This document shows, in pieces, positions 9,134 to 59,580 of a DNA stretch of 64,000 nt. Position 1 is the first letter of the stretch, and every line of letters begins with the position of its first letter. The DNA is from Eledone cirrhosa (lineage: Eukaryota). The stretch is from positions 28,768,001-28,832,000 of the forward strand of contig OZ024743.1 of NCBI GenBank assembly GCA_964016885.1, written 5' to 3'. The notes below the pieces were generated by a model, which ran no database searches, was not told the origin of the DNA, and saw only the letters and a program-made list of their open reading frames with translations. The translations under genes were made by a program, and so were the position numbers.

Positions 9134-9240
9134 CAGTCTAACAATTGTTTCACTGATAGAGTTGTCTAAATATTGCTAAACACAAAGTAGTGCCACTCAA
9201 TTTAAAATACATGTTATCTCCATCATATCCTCAGAGACTG
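9134..9240 (-). ncRNA. Type I hammerhead ribozyme with 76-nt stem II region
   Basis: CAGTCT-CTGAGGA-taTGATGGAG...CTCTATCAgt-GAAAC-AATT-GTT-AGACTG, with perfect 6-bp stem I. Confidence 0.75.
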
Positions 9241-15721: not shown

Positions 15722-15780
15722 CGTACATACATACATACATACATACATACATACATACATACATACATACATACATACAT
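12540..15780 (+). repeat. About 3.2-kb CATA/CATTA compound satellite
   Basis: Direct reading. Confidence 0.95.
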
Positions 15781-17130
15781 AAAAGAAAATATGGTCATCA
15801 GAACTGTCAGCAAAAGAAAATATGGTCATCAGAACTGTCAGCATACAACAAATACATTGCCCAAAATACTTATGCTGTGCCAATTCTAACGCCAACATTT
15901 GGCCTACTGAACTGGTCATTGCAAGAACTAAGTGAGATGGATGTTAGAACTCGAAAACTTCTCAGTGTTACTGGGAACTTTAACATCAATGGTGATGTGG
16001 ATAGGCTATACTTCTCACGCAAGGAAGGTGGCCGGGGTCTAAAATCAATATTAACAACATATGAGACCCGGATAGTGACACTGAAGCAACACCTTCAACA
16101 GAGGAAAAAGGTTGGCAACCATCTTGCCCAGGTTTATGACCATGAAAAAAGAAATATCATTAGAATAGCGACTGATCTGGAGGAGAGATATGGAATAAAG
16201 CCCGATATAAATCTCTCACCCAGAGAAATCGGAAGATCCTATTCAATGTTCAAACAAGAAAAAAAAATTGACCAATTTACAGAAAAAGTTGTGCATGGAT
16301 ACTTGAGGCGTAAAACACAGACCATAGAGGGGATAAACCACTCAAAAAGCCTGGCATGGAGTTCCGACAAGTTTATGACATCACACCTTGAGGGATATCT
16401 CTATGCAATACAGGAACAAGAACTCCCTACCAAATATCTGCTGCACAAAAGAGGAGGGCCAGCAGCTGACAATAAATGTAGGCTATGTAAAACAAAGATC
16501 GAGGATGTAAGCCACATTGTTGCCAGCTGCGAAAGAATGTCATCTCGCTACTACCTCCCCATGAGACACGATGGGATAGCTAGAACCATCTGGAACGCAC
16601 TTCGGAAAACAAAATTAACAACAAACGAGGAAGAATATATTGAGACAGATGGCACTAAGGAATACTGGTGGAACCTGAAAATAAAAACTGCCACCAGATT
16701 AAAGCACAACCGGCCTGATATTGTAGTTTGGGACCACACATTGAAAACGTGTTCTGTTGTGGAGATCAGCTGCCCACTTGATGTAAACGTTGTCAGAAAA
16801 ATACAGGAGAAGGAGGACATCTACGGACCATTGATGAGGAGTTTACAAATCCAGTATCCAAGATACACCTTTAGCTTCATACCCATCATTATTGGTGCTA
16901 CGGGTTATATACCAACCCGCTTGGACCAAAGTATGACTGAACTTGGATTTGCGGACAAAAAGCGCAGCTCCCTAATTCATAGTCTACAAATGGCTGCGAT
17001 AGCTGGCACCTTCAAAATTTGCAAAACATTCTTGCGATTCAAGGGATGACAATTTCTTTTCTTTTACAACCTTGCCACCAGGAAGGTGGCCGGTCAAAAA
17101 AATATACTCAAAATTAAGAGAAAGAGAAAA
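15781..17130 (+). mobile_element. 5'-truncated R4/Dong-clade element inserted in (CATA)n
   Basis: Open C-terminal ORF and short 3' UTR, with (CATA)n on both sides. Confidence 0.9.
15877..17049 (+). CDS. C-terminal part of RLE-type LINE protein (CCHC knuckle and PD-(D/E)xK endonuclease)
   Basis: DRLYFSRKEGGRGL, CRLC..EDVSHIVASC, RHD, HNRPDIVVWD, VVEISCP, PIIIGATG. Confidence 0.85.
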   Translation: MPILTPTFGLLNWSLQELSEMDVRTRKLLSVTGNFNINGDVDRLYFSRKEGGRGLKSILTTYETRIVTLKQHLQQRKKVGNHLAQVYDHEKRNIIRIATDLEERYGIKPDINLSPREIGRSYSMFKQEKKIDQFTEKVVHGYLRRKTQTIEGINHSKSLAWSSDKFMTSHLEGYLYAIQEQELPTKYLLHKRGGPAADNKCRLCKTKIEDVSHIVASCERMSSRYYLPMRHDGIARTIWNALRKTKLTTNEEEYIETDGTKEYWWNLKIKTATRLKHNRPDIVVWDHTLKTCSVVEISCPLDVNVVRKIQEKEDIYGPLMRSLQIQYPRYTFSFIPIIIGATGYIPTRLDQSMTELGFADKKRSSLIHSLQMAAIAGTFKICKTFLRFKG

Positions 17131-17190
17131 CATACATACATACATACATACATACATACATACATACATACATACATACATACATACATT

Positions 17191-17800
17191 ACATGGTGGC
17201 TGCAAACACGTTTTCGAGTACGGCCACTATTTTATATCCATGTAGGAGAACGCCTGCCGATGCGCTGAACAAGTGTGACTTTTTAGTCCAGCCAGCGACT
17301 TGAAAACTGTGGTACAAATACTACACTTGTGACAATTATTGACACATAGTGCTGGGGCCATGGTACCATGTGACGACAAGTGCAAAGAGATCTGCAGATA
17401 TAAAGCAATGCCTGTGCCGTGAAGCTTTTATAGTGACAAAGGCACTGCACAAAGCCAGTCCCACTCTCTTAACCAAGATGATATTTACCAAAAAGAAGAA
17501 CATGTCAACATCATTGGATACCATCATAGTTGCAGGTGTTATATCAGAGTTTTCCTTCTAGAATTCTGCCTTGACAAAGGCTAAGGGGTCATCTCTCCCG
17601 GTGATTTTGGATGGCCATTGACTCTTAAGAGCTCCTTTGCCCTTTGACAGGTTTTGTTTTTAGTCCTGCAGGATGTCCAAAGTCACCCTCCTCACCAAGA
17701 AACCTTGGTGGGGTTGCCAGTTTAGTCGCCAACGACCCGACCATGAGACAGGTTGTACTGGAATACATGTTACCAGTAGCACCAACTGGTGACCTGTCAT
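17191..17800 (-). mobile_element. About 600-bp non-coding retroposon, family C (longest copy)
   Basis: Near-identical copies at 18917-19482, 51452-51805 and 62465-62754 share one end and are variably truncated at the other. Flanked by CATA repeats. Confidence 0.8.
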
Positions 17801-17844
17801 ACATACATACATACATACATACATACATACATACATACATACAT

Positions 17845-18890
17845 ACATACATACATACACACTGCGTGCCTATCAGAAAAAAATCATACATGGATATGTT
17901 GCCAGGAAGCTCCAGAGTGAGAGCAATATAGATAAGGAAAGTAGTCTATCTTGGATCAACAACCGCTATATTGGCTCCCACTTTGAAGGATACGTTTTTG
18001 CAATCCAGGAACAGGAGATTAGCATGAAATACCTGATTCACAAAAGAGATAGGGATGCAGGCAAAACACCTAGATGTGATCACAAGTGCAGACTCTGCAG
18101 AATTAACATCGAGGATATCACCCATGTGTAAAGATGTAATCGCGGTACTATCTACCTATGAGGCATGATGTAATGGCAAAAATACTGTACAATGCATTTC
18201 GTAAAAAAGAGAGCTCTGATAATAAACACATTAAAAGCTACAACAATGTGGAAGACATCCATGTACATAATATGAAAGAGTACTGGTGGAATGTTCCAGT
18301 AAAAATCCCAATAAAATGCAGGCATAAAAGACCATATATTGTGATATGGGACAGCAAGAAGAAAACATGCACAGTAGTGGAAATTAGCTGCCCAGCAGAT
18401 GCCAATATAATATCAAAGATTAGTGAAAACGAGAATATTTATGCAGAACTGATGAGAAATCTGCAGATACTCCACCCTGATTACACCTTCAGATTTATGC
18501 CTGTGATTATTGGGGCACTGGGATATGTTAGTAACTGCCTCAACACAAATCTTGAAAAGATAGGCTTCACAGAAACAGAAAGAACATAACTAGTTAGGAA
18601 ATTACAAGAACAATCCATTAATGGAACAGTAAAAATATGTAAAACATTCCAAAAATGTTGCATCTAATAACTGCATATACACATGTACAGATACAAAGCA
18701 TATACACATGCACACATACAACCCAAAACATACACACCCAGACATACAATAACATCCATATCTACACATGTATGCATACATAATCTACCTAGTTGATGCT
18801 GTGTAAATTCCAATGAGAGAGGCTTGTGTCTATGTTAGAAACCGACTCTCTCTCTATTGGTAAAAATTTCTGAAATTATAAAACAAGAAG
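17845..18890 (+). mobile_element. Second R4/Dong-family 3' fragment, degenerate
   Basis: SHFEGYVFAIQEQE, CRLC, RHD, KRPYIVIWD, VEISCP. Flanked by CATA repeats. Confidence 0.85.
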
Positions 18891-28453: not shown

Positions 28454-28647
28454 GAATAGTTTTATATATATATATATGTGTGTGTGTATATATATTTATG
28501 TGCGTGTGTATGTGTGTGTGTATGCATAGTACATAATTAGACGTTATATTTACTTACATAGGAAAATGCGATGGCACAATTTAAATAAAGTTTATTATAG
28601 AAATCTTGACCGTTATATTGTGTATATATGTAAATATATATATATAT

Positions 28648-28714
<67 letters not shown>

Positions 28715-28717
<3 letters not shown>

Positions 28718-29325
28718 GGGCGGGTAAAATTCCTGACATCCATGGACGAGTTCTCTCCAACGGTCTCTGTCCCTCATCATCGCTACCATGTCCTGTTTCT
28801 CCAAGAGACCAGTGTCTCTCCATAGCGCATCAACATATATCAACCTCGGTCTCCCTCTTCTAGTGGGACCGTGAAGGGGTTCCCACAGGAGCACTGAGTG
28901 GAGAGTCAGCTTTGGATATCGGTGAGCATGTCCAGCTAACCTCAGTCTCCTCTGCGCTACTTTCGAGCTGACTTTTGGGAGGCTCCCGTACAGGTTTGAT
29001 TTCTTCATCCTCTGTGTATACTGATTAATGTTCAGAGCCATCCTCAGCATTCTCGTGTCGCACTCATCCACCATTTGAGTAGGTTTCTTGGTCAGTGTCC
29101 AAGTCTCAGACCCGTACAGCAGTACAGACTCCACTAATGTAACGAAGAGATGGATTTTCAGGTCTTTACGACGGTCCGACTTCCACACCGATCTCAGGCT
29201 TTGATCTTCCGGCCAGGCTTTGATCTCGCCCGCCAGGCTTTGATCTTCCTCTTAACCACATCATCTTCTGTATTCCCAATCTTTGCTCCCAGATATAGGA
29301 AGTCCTCAACCAAAGCCCAAGTCAT
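28715..29325 (-). mobile_element. 5'-truncated RTE, same family as 37419-40748
   Basis: ORF 28613-29188 aligns with the C-terminus of the 1044-aa ORF (..EFYPP). Confidence 0.95.
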
Positions 29326-32859: not shown

Positions 32860-34530
32860 AAATAACTGCAATAATAAAAAAGAAAAAAGAAACAAAAGAA
32901 AAAGATGATAGGAAAATATAGAGAAAAGGAAAGAAAAAAGAGAAAAAGAGAGAAAAAAAGAGAAAAAGAAAGAAAAAAGAGAAAAAGAAAGAAAAAAGAA
33001 AAAGAAAAAAAGAAGAAAAGAAATAAAAAGAGAAAAAGAAAGAAATGAAAAAAGAAAGAAAGAAGAAGAAAGAAAGAAAAAGAGTAAAAAAAGAAAAATG
33101 AGAAAATAAAAAAAGAGAAAAAGAGAGAAAGATGAACGGGAAGGGGAGGGGATGGCAAGAACTCTGGTATCACAAAAGAGAGGGGTGGGGTGAAGGGGGA
33201 TGGTGATTGGACTTTGGGCCTAGGGCCTGGGGGCAGGAGTGCTGCACTCCGCGGACAATACGGCAAAAGCATTCCCGCGGACCATGGCTAGTGACACCCG
33301 CTGCAACAGCCACCCAACCTTGCAGGACTCTCTTCTCAAACGGGCTGCCGACGTTCCGATCTTGCGGAGGAGCTCGGCAGTATGGGGTCCAAGTACGCCT
33401 GAGGTCTCTATAGCAACCGGTGCGAAGAGGAAGCGGCCAGACACACCCCGGTATTTATTTATTTTGCGTTCTTCTGCGAGGCGGGCCATGATGACCGAAG
33501 CGACTAAGTTGGGGGGGCGAAGAACGTGTCGCAGCAAGTGGCGTTCCAGATGAGGAATCTCCCTCCTTCGAATGAGAAGAGGGTGATTCTATCGGGGCGC
33601 TTACCATCTCCGCGGTTAAGGCCAGCTGGCTGCAGTTGAGATGGAAAGCCAGCTGCGTCCAGGCTCCTTCTCAGTATGTCGTTGAGAGCGGCGTGTCGGG
33701 GGGAACCGGCCTTTCTCTGGCGGCAAGACAGATGGTGCAGGCCGAACTTGTCGACAACCGTCCCACAGCGGCATTTATGTGGCTCACATACGTGGAGGCC
33801 AAGGCGTTGGGCTACTTCGATGCAAGTGCACTCATCATCAAGAGGAGTACCGGTTGATGAGGAGATCATCGAATTGAGTCACGTGTCGCTGTTGGGCTGA
33901 GAACTGGAGCGGAGACAGGCGAGGTGGTGTTGGTTCTTCCAGACTTGATCCGCCTGACAGAAGACCTGCAATTGATGTTGTCCCAATTACATTGGACCGT
34001 AGTATACTGGGGGATACAGAGGTATTCTCCTGTCCAGTAGGCCAGAGACTGTCCTATCTCATGAGAAGATCTGTGTAGGCGTGGCTAGGTGTACCACGCA
34101 GGGTAAATGTGCATTTGGGTAGGGCAAAACAGTTCTTCAAGAGGAAGAGAGCAGGATGATCGTCAACGGGGCGCAGCCTCTCAGCTAATCGGGAAAAATC
34201 TGTTTGCTTGGTCTCCAGGCCTTCTCTTATGTCTTTCGGGAGATTGGGGGAGCCGAGAATGCATGCGACGTCCTTGGGTGTCAGCCGAGCCCCGGCCAGG
34301 ATGGGATGGGAGCAGAGTACGGCGTTGCGGAATTCGGCCTCTCCGTAGCTCATGTTGGTCACTTCAGACTTGGTTGGGTCGATTTCAAGTCCAAGGAGCT
34401 TTAAAGCTGGGCTGATTTGTCGAAGGTCCTCAATTACCGTCTCAGCCGGGCCACCCAGGTTCACGTCATCGAGATACCAGACGATGATGGCTGACCGTAC
34501 TGATCGGGTTACGTCGTCGACTGCTAGCGC
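32860..34530 (-). mobile_element. CRE-clade RLE LINE, 3' part, frameshifted
   Basis: VWYLDDVNLGG at about 34455-34480, CRCG..HHLSC, RHAALND, DGKRPD, PVAIETSGVLG and RGNA, then a pyrimidine-rich 3' tract. Confidence 0.85.
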
Positions 34531-34749
34531 GAATTTCCACGATATCTGGATCCTTCAAAATCTGTAAAACATCGTACGATTCAAAGGATGAACGGTTACA
34601 CACATCGTTGCAACCGGGAAAAAGGCCGGTCAGAAAAATTAGGAGAAAAAGAGAACGTACACATACATACATACATACACACGCATACATTCACACACAC
34701 ACCCCCACCCCCCACCCCACACACACAAATATAGATATGTATATATATA

Positions 34750-37418: not shown

Positions 37419-40400
37419 ATCTATCTATCTATCTATCTAAGGCGGGTAAAATTCCCGAGATCCATGGACGAGTTCTCTCCAGCGGACTCTGTCCCTCATT
37501 ATCGCTGCCACGTCCTGCGTCTCCAACAGACCAGTGTCTGTCCTTAGGGCATCAACATATGTTAACCTTGGTCTTCCTCTTCCAGTGTGTCCATGTAGGG
37601 GCTCCCAAAGGAGCACTGAGTGCAATGTCAACTCTGGATGTCGGTGAGCATGTCCAGCCAACCTCAGTCTCCTCTGTGTCACTTTTGAGCTGACTTTTGG
37701 GAGGCTCCCATACAGCTCTGAGTTTTTCATCCTCAGTGTATACTGATTAATGTTAAGAGCCATCCTCAGCATTCTCGTGTAGCACCCATCCACCATCTGA
37801 GTGAGTCTCTTGGTCAGTGTCCAAGTCTCAGACCCATACAGCAGCACAGACTCCACTACAGCAATGAAGAGGCGGATTTTCAGGTCTCTACGAAGGTCCG
37901 ACTTCCACACCGATCTCAAGCTGTGGCACGCCGCCCAGGCCTTGCTCTTCCTCTCAACCACATCATCTTCTGTATTCCCAATCTTTGCTCTCAAATACAG
38001 GAAGTCCTCAACCAATTCCAGCGGCTTCCCGCCTACATTAGTGATCCCCTCTGGCTTCTCAACATTCTCTACCAGATATTTTGTTTTCGTCTCATTCATT
38101 CTCAGCCCCACACTCATCGACACAGTCTCAACCTCCCGCATCAAATCCTCTGCCTCCTTCACTGTATTTGTCACCAAAACTATGTCGTCGGCAAATTCAG
38201 CATCCGATACCTTTTTCGCCCCAACTCTCCTGCTCTGAGCCGGTGCTACAGTAAAGCCAGAGTCCTGGTGTTTCTCCAGTGCAAGGCGCATACAATAGTC
38301 CACTACGATGATAAAAAGGTAGGGAGCCAATGTATCTCCCTGGAGCACTCCAGCCAGTATCTCAAAGAACTCTGTCATCCCATCAGGTGTAATGACTTGG
38401 GCTTTGGTGTTGGTGTAGAGCAGTGATATCAGGTCCACTATCCTCTTGGGGATTCCATAAGCCTGTAAGATCTTCATCAGGCAGTAACGGTCCACAGAAT
38501 CAAAGGCCTTCCTAAAGTCAATGAAAACCATGACCGCAGGAAGGCACTTTGCTCTAGCTCCCTCTAATATCCTCCTCAGCATCAGGATGTGACTGGTGGT
38601 TGATCTACCCTCTCTGAAGCCGTTCTGGTTGTCCCTGAGCTTCTTCTCCATCTCAGGCTGGATCCTGTTAAGAATCATCCTGTTGAGGGTCTTTGCCACA
38701 AGTGACGTCAGTGAGATCCCCCGGTAGTTGTTGGTGTTAGAGAGATCTCCCTTCTTTGGCACTGGGACGATGTTACTGATCCTCCACTGATTCGGGGCAA
38801 CTCCTTTCTCCAGTGCCCCGTTACAGAACCCCAGGATGATATCATCAAAATCACACCACTTCATCACCTCTGATGCCACTCCATCTTCTCCATGAGCCTT
38901 GCCCTCCTTGATCTTCTTCTTGGCTCTCTGAAGCTCCTCTCTGGTGAAGGGCTCTGTCTCAACATCCAGTTCCTCAAACAGCCGCCTGATCTCCCCAGTG
39001 CTCTGGGCTGTGGAGGGTGGCTCTCCTAGTAGGGTCCTAAAATGGTCTAGCCATTTCCTCTTCCTATCCTCGGGCCCCGTTCCCTGGATCTGACTCGAAC
39101 ACCTTTTCTTCCTCCCTGTGATCTCGTTGATGATCATCCAGCTCTCCTTACATCCAGATCTGTCAACCGCTCTCTCCACACTTCTGATCTTCTCTATCAG
39201 TGCCTCCTCTCTGACCTCAGTGTAAGCGGTACAGAGCTCTTCCCTCATCACCTCCACAGTCTCCATCCTCTCCTCCGTAGGATCAGCATAGAATTGGTCC
39301 CTGGCAGCTTTCAGGTGTTCTCTGGCTGCACACACTTTTGGGTCTGCAGAGCTGACGTGCTTCCCTTTGTTCTTTTTCCTCGGCACCAGGGTTTCACTTG
39401 CTTTCGCCACTGCATTGGTGAAGTGCCCGTACCTCCTCGTCACACTCTCCTCAGTCCATCCAATCTCTCTCTCCTCTGACTCTCCACACAGAGCACTAAA
39501 CCTGTTTCTCACTTCCACTGTGAACCTCTCCTGTAGATTATCATCTTCCTTGAAAGCTCCCCAGTCATAGATTGTTCTCCGGGGCTGAGCCTTGCTCTTT
39601 CTTAAGCTCACGCGGACCTCACTCATAACAAGCCGGTGGTCACTACCCAGTGTACTGAAATAGCTGTATGGTTCCGTGTTCAGAACACTATTCCGCCACT
39701 TTTTCCTCACCAGAATGAAATCAATCTGGGACTTGGACAGGTGCATATCTGAGATGTAGGTCCACATCTTCCCCAGATTCTTCCTAAACCTTAGGTTGGT
39801 CGCCATCAAGTTCGCCTCCAGCAGGGTGTCTCTCAGTAGTCTTCCATTTCGGTTGGTGTTGTTATGGAAGTACCAGCAAGGATCTTCACTGCCCTCCTTA
39901 CTCAGATGTGCATTGAAGTCCCCCAAAACAAGCAGGATATTGTGTGGCTGAGTGGTGTTGACAGCTCTACACACTTCCTCATGGAACTCCTCGGCATTCA
40001 CATCACTGTCCCCCTCGGTTGGACTATAGGCTGAGATGACTGTCAGTCTTGGGTTTCCATTGAAGGTCACCCTCAACACTCGCGGGGAGATAGGCATTAT
40101 TTCCCTCACCAACAGATTGGTTTTTGCACTGAACACAAAACCCACTCCTCCTACTGCAGCATTTGTTGTGTTCTTCACTGCCGATGTAGTGGTGAGCTGG
40201 CTCTTCCTCCCGATCATCACACTCCTCACGGGCTCATCGTGTAGAATCCTGTGTTCTTGGATCGCAAGTATCTGTATACCACTCTCCTCGAACAGATGTC
40301 CCAACTCCTCTCTCTTCTCCAGCGTTCGAATAGTCCTCACATTCAAAGTGCCCATTTTGATGGCTCTTCTGCAGGACAAAACTGCATTCTTTATATTTGT

Positions 40401-40748
40401 CTCAGAGACAGCTGATCCATCATCCACTGGCCCTCTCTGTGGCTCTAAGCCAGCAGAGTCATAACGACCAGGCTGCTCCTTGACAGTGTAATTAGGGGCT
40501 CTAACCCTAGTGCTGTTAGATCGGCTCTCCATATTTCTTTTCAATGGCTGACAATACCTTACCGGCGCCACTCGAATAAGGTAGTTATTTAACCCATAAA
40601 TGGAGCCCTAACAGGTACTACCACCCCGGGCCAGGGCAGACCTGGGAGTCATGACAACTAAGGGGTAACTCCATATTCCCCACATCTCCTGAACTCCCGA
40701 ACTGGAGCCTTGCCACTGGATGTAGTTTAATGTCATACCCAAGACATA
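37419..40748 (-). mobile_element. Apparently full-length RTE-clade LINE
   Basis: About 180-nt leader, a single long ORF, and a stop codon running into an (ATAG)n tail. Confidence 0.95.
37437..40571 (-). CDS. APE endonuclease-reverse transcriptase, 1044 aa
   Basis: APE motifs GTLNVRT, IQE, AYSPT, GDFNAH, IDFIL, SDH. RT motifs NYRGISL, QNGFR, FIDFRKAFDSV, GVLQGD, FADD. RTE tail RRLRLAGH. The track start is GTG; the first ATG is at MESRS. Confidence 0.95.
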   Translation of the reverse strand: MAPVRYCQPLKRNMESRSNSTRVRAPNYTVKEQPGRYDSAGLEPQRGPVDDGSAVSETNIKNAVLSCRRAIKMGTLNVRTIRTLEKREELGHLFEESGIQILAIQEHRILHDEPVRSVMIGRKSQLTTTSAVKNTTNAAVGGVGFVFSAKTNLLVREIMPISPRVLRVTFNGNPRLTVISAYSPTEGDSDVNAEEFHEEVCRAVNTTQPHNILLVLGDFNAHLSKEGSEDPCWYFHNNTNRNGRLLRDTLLEANLMATNLRFRKNLGKMWTYISDMHLSKSQIDFILVRKKWRNSVLNTEPYSYFSTLGSDHRLVMSEVRVSLRKSKAQPRRTIYDWGAFKEDDNLQERFTVEVRNRFSALCGESEEREIGWTEESVTRRYGHFTNAVAKASETLVPRKKNKGKHVSSADPKVCAAREHLKAARDQFYADPTEERMETVEVMREELCTAYTEVREEALIEKIRSVERAVDRSGCKESWMIINEITGRKKRCSSQIQGTGPEDRKRKWLDHFRTLLGEPPSTAQSTGEIRRLFEELDVETEPFTREELQRAKKKIKEGKAHGEDGVASEVMKWCDFDDIILGFCNGALEKGVAPNQWRISNIVPVPKKGDLSNTNNYRGISLTSLVAKTLNRMILNRIQPEMEKKLRDNQNGFREGRSTTSHILMLRRILEGARAKCLPAVMVFIDFRKAFDSVDRYCLMKILQAYGIPKRIVDLISLLYTNTKAQVITPDGMTEFFEILAGVLQGDTLAPYLFIIVVDYCMRLALEKHQDSGFTVAPAQSRRVGAKKVSDAEFADDIVLVTNTVKEAEDLMREVETVSMSVGLRMNETKTKYLVENVEKPEGITNVGGKPLELVEDFLYLRAKIGNTEDDVVERKSKAWAACHSLRSVWKSDLRRDLKIRLFIAVVESVLLYGSETWTLTKRLTQMVDGCYTRMLRMALNINQYTLRMKNSELYGSLPKVSSKVTQRRLRLAGHAHRHPELTLHSVLLWEPLHGHTGRGRPRLTYVDALRTDTGLLETQDVAAIMRDRVRWRELVHGSREFYPP

Positions 40749-45700: not shown

Positions 45701-45844
45701 ATGCTTTGGGAGGGTCATGTTGCCAATAAGAAACACAACCACCAGTTGCTTTCACTTCAATTTATTATAAATTAAATTTATAAATTTAGGAATTTATAAA
45801 TTTCCGGTTGGTTGATTGGTTGCACAATTATGTTGGTTCCACAT

Positions 45845-46290
45845 ATTAAGATAGTAGAAAGACCAGGTACCTCCATAAAAACACTTATTAGCAATACATA
45901 CCCTTTTCAAAGACCTCCCTGTATAGATAAGAAATGTATAATCTGTAAACTAAGCCCCCATATTAACTGTAAAACTAGAAATGTAGTATATAGCATAAGA
46001 TGTACTGAAGGACAATGTAGAGATAAGAATATAGTGTACATAGGGGAGACAGCTCGTAGTGTAGGGGAACGGATAAATGAACACTGGCGAGAGCTTCAAG
46101 ATAGTAAAGAATCATCTGTACTCCACCAACATGCTAAAATAGAAAATAAGGGTAAATTAGAGAACATAGAAATAAAAATAGAATCTACACACAGAAAAGA
46201 CGCAATGTTTAGACAAATCACAGAGGCATTAAACATAAATGAACTCCAACCAAATTAAATAGAAAACATGAATGGAACAGCAACATCACA
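45845..46290 (+). pseudogene. PLE GIY-YIG endonuclease domain with upstream C-x4-C-x2-C linker (Neptune-like)
   Basis: CIDKKCIIC..NVVYSIRC..VYIGETARSVGERINEH..RQITEAL, then a stop before NRKHEW. Confidence 0.85.
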
Positions 46291-46534: not shown

Positions 46535-47018
46535 AATATATGAACAATCGTCTGGTTGTGGAACCAACCAACCAACCAACTGGAAATTTATAAATTCCTA
46601 AATTTATAAATTTAATTTATAATAAATTGAAGTGAAAGCAGCTGGTGCGCGTGTTTCTTATTGGCAACATGACCCTCCCAAAGCATAACAATATCGGTTT
46701 CAACACACGTTTTCAGGTAAAGAATCTTGCTAAACAAATTCAGAAACGAAATATATATCTATCTATCTATATATATATATATATATATATACGGGGTAAC
46801 AAATAATTGTTATATGCAGTCCACTGAGGTGTAGTCCAGTTATGGTACTCCGGATAGTGGATGATATCAACGCTTGGCTAAGTTTGACTCAACAAGGCGT
46901 TTCCATAGTGATGCTGCGAGTACGTTGTAATTCCTATGTTGTAAACACTTGAAGTAATAATAAATCAGGAAAGAAGAGTGACACGGTTTGCTATACAAAA
47001 AAGGTTTTTAATCTCATT

Positions 47019-47124
47019 GCTGACAATTGTTTCTCTGAACTGGTAGGTCTAGAGATCGCTATCCGCATATTTTCACGTTAATCGATCGCCAATACAAAGT
47101 TATAACCAGTCAGTTCATCGGAGC
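47019..47124 (-). ncRNA. Hammerhead ribozyme variant, 81-nt stem II region, CCGAUGA core
   Basis: GCT-CCGATGA-aCTGACTGGT...ACCAGTTCAGa-GAAAC-AATT-GTC-AGC. Confidence 0.65.
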
Positions 47125-47947
47125 TTGCGAGAATGAAGAGAATATACAGGCATGAAAAGAATATACAGGCTACTATATGCAGAAGTAATGGCATTCAGTT
47201 AGAACAATAACAACAATATCAACAATCCTAGCAATAAATTATTTGAAATAATCACAACATCAATCTAGGTGGGAAGTATAGTATATCTATGATTTTAGCG
47301 TATAAAACTAGCTGACATGAGGCAGATGTATAAAATTGACATGTAAAAACTGTCGTAGGGTGTATTATATTAAGTGTAAAGATAAGCTGGTGTTTTTAAA
47401 CAATGTAGGTCAGGTGGCCGTAATAGTCGGTTTTTATCTGACCGATGAAGGATGTATCACTGTAGTGGAATTTGTGTGGTCTATATTAGATGAGAGGGCT
47501 GTCTTTCTTTCTCATCCTCAATAACATACATGTATAAGACAACACTAACAAAGCTAAATAATGGGCAAGTTAATACAGAGGTTAAGGAGGCAATATATAT
47601 ATATATACATATATATACACACACACATGCACACAAACATATATATATATATATACACACACACATACATATACATACATACATACAAAGAGAAAACATG
47701 CTGACTATAATTATAGCAAGAGGAAGGTAAAGTTCTGTTGTAATAGTATTTTGAAATGTTCTTGGATTTAGGATCAAGTGCTGACAGCAGCTGAGAAGAG
47801 ATAAGTTTATGGGTTGATGAGGTACTTACAGACATTTGTGTGGTATAGAATTAAGAAGGCTAGAATGTACTTAATGATTATATTTCTGTGGTGATTCGTG
47901 CAGAGTAGTGGGTATCCTAGTTGAAAGCCATGTTACGTCGGTTCGAT

Positions 47948-48873
47948 TCACGGAGGTTTAAATCTTATGAATTTAGTGGCGATCCTGTGTCTGCGGAAGA
48001 TAGATCTTTCTAACTTGTTGTTAAGTAGCCTTTTTAGATTTCTAAGGATATACAGTAGTTCTAGATCACATAGCCTACAGTGGGACATACCTGTACTGTT
48101 GGTTTTCGCAGCCGACAACCTCGACCAGTTGATACTGTAGCTAGTGTTGTTGTTCTTCAGTTCCCATATTTTTTTGGCGAGGGTTGTAGAACCCATAAGT
48201 GCACGATTTTTCATCGAGTGTCTGTGCACATACCATCTTTTTTTAAAAGTACCCGCGGTGGATCCAATGTAATGCCAAGTGGAGTCGTCTGAGTTGACCG
48301 TACACATGTACACTAGGCTCTAATCGAGGCATCTATTCGCCAATGGGCACCTATCCGGTAGGTGACAATTACAGTTTGAGGTGTTATTTCGTGCAGCTTC
48401 TACACTGCTGTTTAGTACTCTGCTATAAGTGGGTTGTGATTCATGCCCGTTGGGGTTTTGCTGCTGCGCGCTTGTATGTGCTTGCGGTTGTGATACTGTG
48501 ATGTGTTTATGCTTATAATTTGGTGCTATGTTTCGCATATGTGGGGCTGATTCCCTAGAGATATTTCTGTGGTTGATCTTGCGTATGTGCGATTCTATAT
48601 TTGCTGCCGTAGAGTATGAGAGTTTTATAGTATTTCTATTGAGTATTTTATGATATCTATGTGCAATAGGGAAGTGTTTATCTATTAGTTTAAAGAATGT
48701 AGAGGGCAGTCTGGTTTTTACAGAGGAGTTGAAGATTGGGTTGAACCATAGGTATTTTCTTTCTCTGATTCTTCTATTGTTTCTTGGGTTTACGTTATTA
48801 GTGTTTTGACCGTTCACTCTAGGTGCTACGTGCCTAACCCTATGTCTAGTCCAGTTACCTCTATTTGTGTGTG
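47948..48873 (-). pseudogene. PLE C-terminal linker + GIY-YIG endonuclease, one in-frame TAG
   Basis: LWFNPIF..LIDKHFP..NRNTIKLSYS, CNC-x5-CPL-x3-C, LVY..YIGST..FKKRW..H, CRLCDLE. ORFs 48320-48817 and 47948-48313 are in the same frame. Confidence 0.9.
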
Positions 48874-49622
48874 AGCCTTCTTAGTTCTATACCATACTAA
48901 TGTCTGTAAGTACCTCATCAACCCATAAACTTATCTCTTCTCAGCTGCTGTCAGCACTTGATCCTAAATCCAAGAACATTTCAAAATACTACTACAACAG
49001 AACTTTACCTTCCTCTTGCTATAATTATAGTCAGCATGTTTTCTCTTTGTATGTATGTATGTATGTATATGTATGTGTGTGTATATATATATATAGATAT
49101 ATATATTTGTGTGCATGTGTGTGTGTATATATATGTATATATATATATATATATTGCCTCCTTAACCTCTGTATTAACTTGCCCATTATTTAGCTTTGTT
49201 AGTGTTGTCTTATACATGTATGTTATTGAGGATGAGAAAGAAAGACAGCCCTCTCATCTAATATAGACCACACAAATTCCACTACAGTGATAAATCCTTC
49301 ATCGGTTAGATAAAAACCGATTATTACGGCCACCTGACCTACATTGTTTAAAAACATCAGCTTATCTTTACACTTAATATAATACACCCTACGACAGTTT
49401 TTACATGTCAATTTTATACATCTGCCTCATGTCAGCTAGTTTTACACGCTAAAATCATCGATATACTATACTTCCCACCTAGATTGATGTTGTGATTATT
49501 TCAAATAATTTATTGCTAGGATTGTTGATATTGTTGTTATTGTTCTGATTGAATGCCATTACTTCTGCATATAGTAGCCTGTATATTCTTTTCATGCCTG
49601 TATATTCTCTTCATTCTCGCAA

Positions 49623-49728
49623 GCTCCGATGAACTGACTAGTTATAACTTTGTATTGGCGATCGAGTAACGTGAAAATAAGCGGATAGCGATCTCTAGAC
49701 CTACCAGTTCAGAGAAACAATTGTCAGC
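49623..49728 (+). ncRNA. Mirror copy of the 47019-47124 HHR variant
   Basis: Same motif in the right arm. Confidence 0.65.
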
Positions 49729-50587
49729 AATGAGATTAAAAAACCTTTTTTTGTATAGCAAACCGTGTCACTCTTCTTTCCTGATTTATTATATATATAT
49801 ACACATAGGTACACACACACATATATATATATACACACAGACACACACACACAACACACACACATGTGTTTGTGTTTGTCTACATATGTTTATTATTGTG
49901 TTATATAACATTTTTCCTTTTCATGTTTTATCGAAAAGGAAAAGGCATATGATTTGTTTTCCACTTGCCCACAAATGAAATCACATCAAATAAAATACAC
50001 AATCAGAGAATATATCGTTCAGAATAATCGATTGTTGTTAAAATACTGCATGTGTATCTGAATAAGAACAGCCACCATCTTCTGAACGCTGCGATATCAT
50101 AAAATTTGAATCTCAAACGATAAATCGCCATTATTATTATTTTCACTCTTAATATCCATCCGGTGACAGCTTTCGTCCGTTAGAATCTTTTTCATATTTT
50201 TGATTGGTGAATTTACTTTCGTTTCTGATTCATATTTCGTCTTGATCAAATACCATAATGCTATTGTTCGTCTGAGATACATTAAGAAGGAGTTATTGAG
50301 CAATCCAATACCGATATTATTCTAATAAATTTACAATAAGCTATCTCCAGGCTACGTGAGATATCTTGCTCTTTTTACATGGTCGTAGTTTGCAATTATC
50401 GATATATATATTGATTGATATGTCTGTCAATGCATTTCACTGTTTAATGTATCATACAGAGCTAGATCTTGTCTAATACAAGTATAACATCTTGGCAGTA
50501 GAATGATATTGCTTTCTTACATATTGACGCAAGGTGGATTTTGGAATAACATAGTAGATACCTGCACACACATATACATACACAAGT

Positions 50588-56276: not shown

Positions 56277-56346
<70 letters not shown>

Positions 56347-56452
56347 GAAACGGCTGGAGCTCAGCTGTCGGGGTCCTGACTCTTTTCCTATATATATATA
56401 TATATGAAAAGAGTCAGGACCCCGACGGCTGAGCTCTGGCCGTTTCGACAGC
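56057..56452. mobile_element. Two family D fold-back modules
   Basis: 56057-56263 is tail + palindrome; 56345-56452 has arms around a short TA tract. Confidence 0.8.
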
Positions 56453-56671
56453 TAGAGCTAGAGACCCTCTTCCTGTTATTTCAAGCGTTAATCTAATATA
56501 TTCCTTCCGTATACTGTACCGACTGTATTGTTATTTTTGTTTACCTTTTTTACCATGCCAGTACCGGTTGTATCTCAGCGCACTCAATGGGCAATGTAAG
56601 ATACATTACCAGAGTATACACATAGTTATTTGCCTCAACACAGCACACGTAAAACGGGTGCCTATAAGAAC

Positions 56672-56781
56672 CCCGGACTCGAGTTTCTGCCGCACTAATG
56701 CAGCGGTAAGGTGCACTGCACCATCTGTCTGCATATATTATGCAACAATGCACAATCGGCTTATGCGGCTTCATCAGCGGG
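56672..56781 (-). ncRNA. Type I hammerhead ribozyme with 83-nt branched stem II region
   Basis: CCCG-CTGATGA-aGCCGCA...TGCGGCa-GAAAC-TCGA-GTC-CGGG. Confidence 0.8.
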
Positions 56782-57409
56782 TATCGCCTAAAATAACCAA
56801 TCGATCGCCAGAATCCAAACACCGGCCCATGCCGGTCATGACTGTTTGTGACAACTGACACGTTAAAGCGATTAGCAACTGGCAACCGATAGGACTCTAT
56901 CTCTCAACTAGCCACTGATTTACGAATTTTACGTGGGGACTGGAAGCTAAAAAGAATCAATCTTTTAGTTCCTGTCAGAAGACCTCAGCCAACGTGTCTC
57001 ACACACAAATTATCAAGAGGTGAAAAGATGGCTATTAGAAATAGCAGTTCACATTGATATAAAATAGAATGGTAGCATTCGGTTCATGTCTCCAAGCCCA
57101 TGGCTAGAGGAAAGCGATGGTAACAATGGTAGTGCCAAGAACCTTTAACGGACTTTAAATGCGATCATCCATTATATAACAATATAGTAGCGAGCTGAAA
57201 TGTGTCAGCCACGTGCGTAGATAACCAGTCTAATTCACAACTTAAAAGAGTGAGAGACAAAATTAGTAGCAGGAAAAAGAGTGCATATCAAAACAAAAAC
57301 ACAATAAAAAGTGAAAAATTGTTTAACTTACTCTCATATATATATATATATATATAATTTAGGCTTGTATTTTGTTATGGGGTAGGTTGTAAGGTATAAA
57401 TTATATATA

Positions 57410-57590
57410 TAATGGTCGATCGACTTTCGTCAAATCGAACCGAGGAAACAATGTTTCCGTTGACGTTTCCAATTGCTAATACTATCTATCAGTCGCAACT
57501 CCAGATAGAAGGAGCAACATGAAATAAAGTGTCTTGCTCAAAGACATAATGCATCGCACGGTCCAGGAATCGAACTCACAACCTCACAAT
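57410..57590 (-). mobile_element. SINE family B, head truncated
   Basis: Matches 5915-6085. Confidence 0.8.
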
Positions 57591-57738
57591 ATATAGTTTC
57601 AGAAGATCCTGTTAAAGGTGAAAGGAGCGATTCTTTGCTTAAACTTTAATCTGTTATTTTAATAAATATTTGCTCTAGGGTTGTTATATATTTGATATAT
57701 ATTTATCTTTGGATGTTAGTCTTCATATTTATTATTAT

Positions 57739-58217
<479 letters not shown>

Positions 58218-58226
<9 letters not shown>

Positions 58227-59580
58227 TATAAATATTAATAAAATAGATGTTCTTTTGATCAATTAAATTTTATTAACAGTAATTATCTTTTGTAAGTTTT
58301 TAATTTTACCTACCGTATTTTTCTATCCATGATTCAAATATAGAGCAAATATCCAAACTATAAATTATTACGGACCTTATTCTGAACTCTGAATTATCCA
58401 TGCATTTATTATTATTTTTCTTATATATATGTATGTATTTAACTGTAACACGTTGAAATCTATTATATAAGATTATAATCGTTATCATTTACCTAAAGTA
58501 TACTGTATCACTAATACTTAATATATATCTATATATACCTCCCTGTAGCTCTCTATACATAATTTTTAGATAACTTCAAAATTTTTAAATTATTATTTAT
58601 TTTGAACTGTGAATAATTCATGCATTTACTACCTGTTATATATAGGTATCTATTTAACTTTAGCATGCTTCACTCTATTATTTTATATTCGTTATCATTT
58701 ACCTAAAATATACTGGCTCATTAATATATCTCTATATACATAATCGTTATTTAAATATTTCTAACAATAAGTACTTCATAAGCTTTACATACCAAAAATG
58801 TTGACACTTTTATAGGTAATCTTCGTTAAAGTTTACATTTAGGAAAATATTCAACAGTGTAAATTTTCCTTTCGCTTGCCAGGTAAATACTTTAAATTTT
58901 ATCCTCATAAAATTCAGAAATTTATAAATGTTAACACACTTATAGAATTTATAAAATTAATAAATATAAATAACCAGCAACTTTTAAAAACACCTAAAAT
59001 CTTGATTCTTCACCCTTAAAATAACAAATTAAATATTTTGAAACTTAACCGTTTAGCTTTTGGGAAAAAAATCTCTTTCTGCATATATTACTCCCCTTTA
59101 TCTTTCCCTCTCTTTAAATCCTCTTTCAGCGGCCCTCGTGGACTGTTATAATTCATGAGATGTTTTCCTAGATAACCATAACTTGTAGTATCCTACATGT
59201 TAAAATCTCTATAGTCGTCACATTAACCAACATTTTTCTTACTCACACATTCCCTATTGAATATATTACGTTTTCGCATTTTCTCATTATTATGGTATAA
59301 ATGTTGAGTTTTCTCTTAGGTTAATCACTACCTTGATTAAATCTTAACCATTTAACATCTCAGGGTGTGTCATGTATCATTATATTTTGTCTGATGAGGG
59401 CGTACTGTTGTACCTCCGAAATATGTATAATAAAATTTAATTGATCAAAAGAACATCTATTTTATTAATATTTATATTTTAATATTAATAACTCTGGAAA
59501 ATTATTTACTGTAGAGTGCTTCCAATCTACTGTAAAACTCATTCTTTGATATACTCATTGAATCTTGTTTAACTCTTTAA
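58218..59580 (+). mobile_element. 1.36-kb non-coding PLE-type module in (TA)n
   Basis: 58-bp arms 58218-58275 and 59428-59485, HHR just before the right arm, about 95-nt tail. Confidence 0.8.
59384..59436 (+). ncRNA. Type I hammerhead ribozyme
   Basis: ATTTTGT-CTGATGA-gggcGTACtgttGTACctcc-GAAA-TATGTA-TA-ATAAAAT. Confidence 0.8.

Follow-up and report, generated by a model that had tools for sequence, protein, structure and literature searches.

A type I hammerhead motif with a stem II region of 83 nt lies on the minus strand (56781-56672) of the window, that is, of the whole 64,000-nt stretch of Eledone cirrhosa DNA that was analysed. Judged from the sequences, what is new here is a set of stem II arms that are 60-116 nt long and belong to at least three architectures. 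The best explanation for the motif under study, held with slightly more confidence than doubt, is a weak ribozyme dependent on a dimer or on a protein, with the 83-nt three-way junction as its putative protein-binding handle.

The hammerhead at 56781-56672

The motif was assigned to type I on the basis of its core (CUGANGA, GAAA, NUH) and of three helices, of which stem I is open. Its features, all on the minus strand, are as follows:

56778..56781, minus strand: hammerhead stem I, 5' strand CCCG (read from the sequence and by subfamily comparison)
56771..56777, minus strand: 5' half of the catalytic core, CUGAUGA (read from the sequence and by subfamily comparison)
56688..56770, minus strand: 83-nt stem II region, predicted three-way junction (from folding and subfamily changes)
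56770 and 56688, minus strand: extra A bases of stem II, flanking the closing helix
56769-56763 / 56695-56689, minus strand: stem II closing helix GCCGCAU/GUGCGGC, opening with G-C
56762-56757, minus strand: stem II linker, 6 nt
56756-56737, minus strand: stem II hairpin 1
56734-56698, minus strand: stem II hairpin 2
56676..56687, minus strand: GAAA, 2-bp stem III with palindromic UCGA loop and GUC triplet; the 3' core half reads GAAAC-UCGA-GUC (56687-56676)
between 56676 and 56675, minus strand: predicted cleavage site, after GUC
56672..56675, minus strand: hammerhead stem I, 3' strand CGGG

The core, the CCCG/CGGG stem I and the 83-nt stem II with its closing helix and inner hairpins are thus present on the minus strand as the sequence-only reading had described them. 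The insert was predicted to fold with -34.7 kcal/mol (z -3.1 against 200 dinucleotide shuffles) into a 7-bp closing helix, a 6-nt linker and two hairpins; the stability of its 146-nt context is ordinary (z -1.14), and several UGCA palindromes in the insert allow alternative folds. Stem III has a predicted probability of 0.001-0.04 in the monomer, and the homodimer formed through its palindrome was calculated at -10.7 kcal/mol. In the minimum-energy fold, the 5' strand of stem I and the start of the core are buried in a GGCG/CGCU hairpin. A pseudoknot of GUGCAUUG in the insert with the downstream UAGGCAC was dropped, the pairing being broken in the subfamilies.

Because the pattern CTGANGA-N80..86-GAAACTCGAGTC has 675 exact matches in the 3.0-Gb genome and 0 with the reversed control, the motif is not a product of chance. 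No hammerhead model of Rfam matched positions 56550-59500 (E<=10); short-armed motifs at 58012 and 59391 were equally missed, so the failure is not specific to the insert. Over the 64-kb window no hammerhead family appears among the Rfam matches listed (150 of 248), and neither these matches nor the search of 56550-59500 yielded a source RNA for the insert; ARAGORN found no tRNA at 5 loci. The two short-armed hammerheads, at 59391 (+) and 58012 (-), belong to other repeat families and have stem II regions of 20 and 31 nt; an inverted, probably deleted pair of short-armed hammerheads lies near 10.6 kb (10574, minus strand, and 10666, plus strand).

The motif resembles the hammerheads of Penelope-like elements (PLEs; Cervera and de la Pena 2014, PMC4209133) in being type I, in its CUGANGA-H core start and short stem I, and in its palindromic stem III and its position near the 3' end of a PLE-like repeat. 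Measured against the consensus CUGANGAH-G...C-GAAAN-palindrome-NUH published there, it has an A after A9, then G-C, and the UCGA palindrome. It differs from that set in its predicted branched stem II of 83 nt, whereas the 2014 descriptor provides for 3-7 bp and a loop of 3-10 nt, at most 26 nt for stem II (PMC4209133); the expectation that standard descriptors would miss the motif is borne out by these figures.

An A.A mismatch had also been pointed out at the foot of stem II. Both A bases are there, but the G-C pair follows one step further out, and the PLE descriptor already allows 'a possible extra N10' and 'a possible extra N11' (PMC4209133). In F1, the repeat family of the motif, the bases beside the core are never Watson-Crick (A/C in older and A/A in younger copies), and the next pair out is C/C or U/C in the oldest subfamily instead of G-C. 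Elsewhere, U10.1-U11.1 has been reported as natural (PMC3088659), stem II is flanked by U/U or by other unpaired bases in many Hydra-clade rows of File S2 (PMC8557442), and HHR_Amex2 of the axolotl begins its helix II with U-U (preprint 10.64898/2026.07.22.740005). Mismatches at this place were counted in 13/17 long and 7/16 short clusters (P=0.08), clusters that are not independent and of which one or two long ones are mis-parsed. A tie between mismatch and long insert, as had been supposed, does not follow from these counts, the mismatch being found in short hammerheads too and being already published. The mismatch at the stem II base and the link to PLEs are already known and add little.

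The host repeat

The motif sits in one copy of F1:

56555..57341, minus strand: F1 copy covering unit positions 56-844, its truncated 5' end lying in a (TA)n tract
57336..57356, strand not assigned: (TA)n tract at the 5' truncation point of the F1 copy, likely insertion target

A 301-nt query returned 2501 first-look candidates, of which the best 40 were scored, and the unit was defined from 60 loci representing 55 distinct places; as best matches, these are biased to long, young copies. The F1 unit is 844 nt long and non-coding, and showed no similarity to PLE protein queries. A common 3' end was found in 46/55 places (43 by BLAST, and 3 diverged ones by eye) and runs into (TA)n or (TTA)n, while the 5' ends are scattered, mostly at (TA)n. 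Part of a second lap is present in 17/55 places and the cut site occurs twice in 5; two full hammerhead motifs occur in L050 (842 nt apart) and L384 only, the copies being mostly single units. The constant 3' end, 5' truncation and partial tandem (pLTR-like) copies are PLE traits, and partial tandems and internal initiation of reverse transcription belong to PLE anatomy (PMC8557442, PMC11167929). F1 can be called a PLE-type element with high confidence; it is likely non-autonomous, with the reverse transcriptase/endonuclease of a PLE copying it in trans.

An autonomous partner of F1 was not found among the fetched loci and flanks, nor could the family be placed in a PLE clade, and a search for its relatives with a tight pattern yielded just 4 matches. 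F1 does not align significantly (z about 1) to D, an old family in which similar words occur. The F1 family is present in three contig sets from one sample. The window copy is 96% identical to the natural copy L021, is shorter by 34 nt at its 3' end than is usual in the family and, with its one hammerhead, is probably an inert insertion. A tail of 30-40 nt is only suggestive, since its 34-nt length is set by the window copy's own end (L019 ends 40 nt short). Directly downstream of the motif, a small inverted-repeat element around a (TA)n core occupies 56343-56450, with related copies nearby.

Non-LTR retrozymes are, like F1, non-coding, non-autonomous, of type I and PLE-derived (PMC7229834; 10.64898/2026.07.22.740005). 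They form tandem arrays of about 300-nt units that make circular RNA (PMC7229834), unlike F1, which is 844 nt long, dispersed, 5'-truncated and rarely has two hammerheads; tandem arrays with a hammerhead in consecutive units were not seen in F1.

For copies starting near the cut, 25 places were taken by eye among 100 matches listed of 410 overlapping ones. No pile-up of 5' ends at the cut was found among these 25: one starts at the cut, and 11 start at or beside a TATAG microhomology. With 1/25 starting at the cut, the main template does not look like cleaved linear RNA; copies in which the cut site is crossed twice could come from a circle just as well as from an uncut multimer.

Long stem II arms in the genome

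Patterns were counted over the 3.0-Gb genome and compared with control counts. CTGANGA-N60..90-GAAAC-N4-GTC gave 7331 matches (279 in the control) and the same pattern with GTW 13641 (713), about 21,000 against about 1,000 together; the N8..35 short-arm pattern with GTC gave 1227 (299). Both arm-length ranges exclude GAAAT-type motifs, and about a fifth of the first 100 GTC N60..90 matches listed were by eye not long-armed hammerheads: some are short motifs preceded by a second core, others belong to a repeat that has no stem I or are chance matches. One repeat with both core halves 76 nt apart and no stem I (L135, L144) inflates the counts. In an untargeted count over 362 kb of flanks, 28 motifs had stem II regions below 45 nt and 9 longer ones (5 of 70 nt or more), against ~1 in shuffles; the long-armed motifs are therefore a minority, but a sizeable one. 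The sequence-only reading had pointed to ~80 nt as a special length; the lengths instead run continuously from 11 to 116 nt.

Three further groups of long arms were distinguished beside F1. Class A (59-63 nt; L188, L146, L171 and others) carries one A.G/bulge module, of which the columns G, A, U and A are invariant in 19/19 sequences; RNAalifold gave a meaningless consensus for it, and a count of named structures in its place showed double changes at 14 pairs in the 19 sequences. Class C (104-116 nt; L089, L185, L221) has a single module in 2/3, not significant singly. Bar one weak class A link, neither autonomous partners nor a host clade of classes A and C were found in the fetched flanks. 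An old non-coding repeat (L257-L286, e.g. L271:1548-1684, minus strand; 75-82% identity, 2153 first-look candidates) has a hammerhead with an apparent U3-A8 core (UUGAUAA), the stem III loop UGCA and a stem II of ~62-65 nt with G-C as its first pair, which is missed by the CUGANGA patterns.

Class B consists of F2, F3 and further families of 75-90 nt. Its members in the window are:

9134..9240, minus strand: F2 hammerhead, 76-nt rod-shaped stem II, U/U, two A.G/bulge modules (class B)
46992..47687, minus strand: F3, a Hydra-clade PLE 3' UTR that holds a class B hammerhead (stem II 81 nt) whose core lies at 47121
47948..48880, minus strand: Hydra-clade PLE upstream of F3, in broken frames: thumb, CxCX5C linker, endonuclease
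49060..49755, plus strand: inverted 5'-truncated F3 copy with a second hammerhead, core at 49626

The lengths and flanking bases at 9234 (minus strand), 47121 (minus strand) and 49626 (plus strand) are those given in the sequence-only reading: F2 has its U/U, the window copy showing a 2-nt deletion against family copies of mostly 78 nt, and both F3 hammerheads have 81 nt with A/A flanks. The F3 core is fixed family-wide as CCGAUGA (U4C), and its stem I has an internal loop. F2 and F3 had been taken as unrelated, yet their inserts align with z 5.4-5.5, and each aligns to a third family with z 8.5-9; for the F1 insert, the alignment to either of them has z about -1. A convergence of three independent families was not borne out, F2 and F3 being homologous and F1 of a different architecture.

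The class B rod carries two modules of the form 5'-A-N-U-X / 5'-Y-A-G (A.G, bulged N, U-A, X-Y) about one turn apart. The module pair beats shuffles at p<=0.05 in 22/28 representatives, three of the 22 in a register other than the by-eye one and with the motif defined from the same sequences; in the F1 target it was found in 0 of 3 (p 0.12-0.31). Because MAFFT misplaced several class B groups by one module, pair counts were taken from 15 of 31 class B sequences, together with a motif-anchored parse of 28. Over the 15 members that could be aligned, double changes occur at 10 pairs of the named structure, and its covariation is 0.286, compared with 0.155 shuffled and at most 0.144 slid (n=15; relatedness inflates these scores). 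Both module U-A pairs are invariant (15/15), and the first stem II position is unpaired in 13/15. A class B model returned 17.7-46 bits for held-out members, although a short-armed family reaches 30-33 bits via the common core; the F1 target scored 11.2 bits (E 4.2), below short hammerheads. A metagenome scan with the class B pattern gave 94 matches, 4 with a 3-bp stem I and 0 with a palindromic loop or a closed stem II, which were treated as chance.

Hydra-type thumb/endonuclease frames are found 0.4-1.6 kb upstream of the class B motifs. The hosts of F3 and most class B families show a C-terminal endonuclease without CCHH, a CxCX5C linker, CxxC, CxH and (TA)n, the Hydra-clade assignment being made from motifs read against the descriptions in PMC8557442; the frames at 47948..48880 gave no Pfam match. 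The more distant class B host proteins are 33-45% identical to that of F3, and over this divergence the invariant A, U, A and G of both modules persist. In an endonuclease tree (18 rows, one short row dropped, class B links by proximity), 12/13 class-B-linked rows fall in one clade with one unlabelled row (support 99/98), and L222 falls outside.

Elsewhere in the window, a GIY-YIG endonuclease frame at 45800-46258 (+; PF01541, E 5.6e-5) with a CX4CxxC linker represents another PLE clade, presumably Neptune/Nematis-like by motif. By eye, the open 1056-aa frame at 37437-40607 (-) resembles an endonuclease-RT LINE protein, 28613-29251 is a fragment related to it, and 33220-34554 (-) and 15780-18589 (+) look like fragments of RT and restriction-like endonuclease domains from other non-LTR elements.

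Hydra-clade PLE hammerheads likewise have a stem III of 2-3 bp and (TA)n targeting (Craig et al. 2021, PMC8557442, File S2), with listed loops of 3-10 nt. In the same source the longest stem II is about 50 nt, in two spike-moss PLE-X elements, the spacer is 7-17 nt, and unexplained Naiad 'half cores' stand at 35-50 nt. Comparison with these PLE/Naiad alignments, which had been named as the measure of novelty, leaves the arm length beyond the longest entry in the parts covered, but the flanking mismatch is already listed. Six stem III words were not found in the text of the Craig supplement, where line breaks could hide them. In the parts of the literature covered, 'long helix II' stands for 6-8 bp and no 60-120-nt stem II domains in PLE hammerheads were found; Luense 2017 and Arkhipova 2017 may hold some.

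Selection on the arm and its possible role

As the sequence-only reading required, the inserts are family-wide and not copy-specific; the alignments hold 54, 35 and 28 distinct sequences for the three families. The core is intact in 42/52 young F1 copies. Older F1 subfamilies are 73-88% identical overall to the young one, and between subfamilies 0/19 core columns and 0/20 columns directly upstream of the core differ, compared with 102/567 (18%) further upstream. Against this last figure, the insert is not significantly more conserved (10/83, P=0.21), and the entire hammerhead region is (13/142, P=0.011). Nine of the 10 insert changes keep the fold: four make up two double changes, two are G-U/Watson-Crick swaps, three are unpaired, and one breaks a terminal pair. 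With the fold taken from the young subfamily, 1/30 insert pairs is broken versus 4.3 expected from matched random changes (P=0.011). The F1 arm is therefore likely kept folded by selection. Direct covariation, which was also to be checked, is thin in F1 (one named pair with a double change, a value that shuffles reach in 344/500) and present in class B with the scores given above. Of the 'selected variant' that had been proposed, the kept fold across F1 subfamilies stands and the convergence of three families falls.

A close rival, above all for F1, which has no conserved module, is that the distal part of stem II, away from the active site, grew by local duplications and has no function of its own, selection removing only changes that unfold the arm and disturb the core. 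This is a substantial possibility, if one that falls short of being probable. The continuum of lengths, the several unrelated architectures, the insert divergence not significantly below that upstream and the repeated UGCA words in the F1 insert, which suggest duplication, agree with it, and the fold-compatible F1 changes are equally expected. It does not account for the non-canonical module positions of class B, invariant over deep protein divergence while neighbouring pairs covary, or for the related class A module, invariant in 19/19; this invariance argues for a shaped surface in those classes, not in F1. Any role of the F1 arm beyond staying folded is somewhat doubtful.

It is improbable that the GCC of the linker pairs with a GGC upstream of stem I, or docks on distal stem I, so as to free the hairpin hiding C3-U4 and turn the ribozyme on as a monomer. 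The hidden 5' stem I strand and core start in the minimum-energy fold would give such a switch its occasion, the 20 nt upstream are unchanged between subfamilies and the linker GCC is kept, and loop I-II contacts are the usual activators (PMC3088659); but the pairing would be of 3-4 bp only, without covariation, and a 2-bp stem III argues against an active monomer. A dead ribozyme, carried as a relic by recent amplification of a few master copies, would fit the even deviation across regions (1-4%) within the young subfamily, the missing trace of cleaved templates and an A/A beside the core that may slow catalysis, but has little probability given a core unchanged between such diverged subfamilies and the reduced divergence of the whole hammerhead region.

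The preferred reading remains the weak ribozyme dependent on a dimer or a protein; the motif is probably catalytically competent in one of these two states. A tandem F1 copy would be transcribed, and two hammerheads would pair via the UCGA palindrome, or the element's protein would refold one, with slow cutting after GUC. Reverse transcription would have one constant starting point, ~155 nt downstream of the cut, with mostly uncut multimer or circular RNA as its template, and the copy would insert into (TA)n. The branched arm may bind the PLE protein or chaperone the fold. Dimers through the stem III palindrome have been proposed for PLE hammerheads, and in vitro one PLE hammerhead needed its protein for cleavage, and insertion did not require the hammerhead (PMC11167929), which agrees with cleaved linear RNA not looking like the main template. 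A long arm is not needed for success, as short-armed families are commoner (28/37 untargeted motifs below 45 nt).

A protein-binding or regulatory role of the arm would be best supported for the class of F2 and F3, less for the target. Large domains can hang on a hammerhead arm and regulate it: aptazymes are artificial hammerheads with aptamers on stem II, and the rodent Clec2 discontinuous hammerhead reportedly has a large domain inserted in stem I. A repeated conversion of stem II into a protein-recognition domain, bound by the element's own RT-endonuclease, is conceivable but unlikely; the modules would be the three-way junction in the target and A.G / bulge / U-A, present once in classes A and C and twice, one turn apart, in class B, and ribozyme cleavage would be coupled to ribonucleoprotein assembly.

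As to why PLEs keep hammerheads, given that insertion in vitro can do without the one tested with its protein (PMC11167929), natural families whose stem II carries a large conserved domain provide defined positions at which mutants can be made for binding and cleavage assays; the strongest lead comes from the class B module rather than from the target. A descriptor limited to 26 nt, or one with 7-50-nt spacers, misses ~10^4 motifs in the Eledone cirrhosa genome; published numbers of hammerheads, and statements that a PLE clade has none, may therefore have to be looked at again. If true, the recognition-domain reading would explain the protein-assisted cleavage of PLE hammerheads, and would suggest long-armed ones in some PLEs reported without hammerheads.
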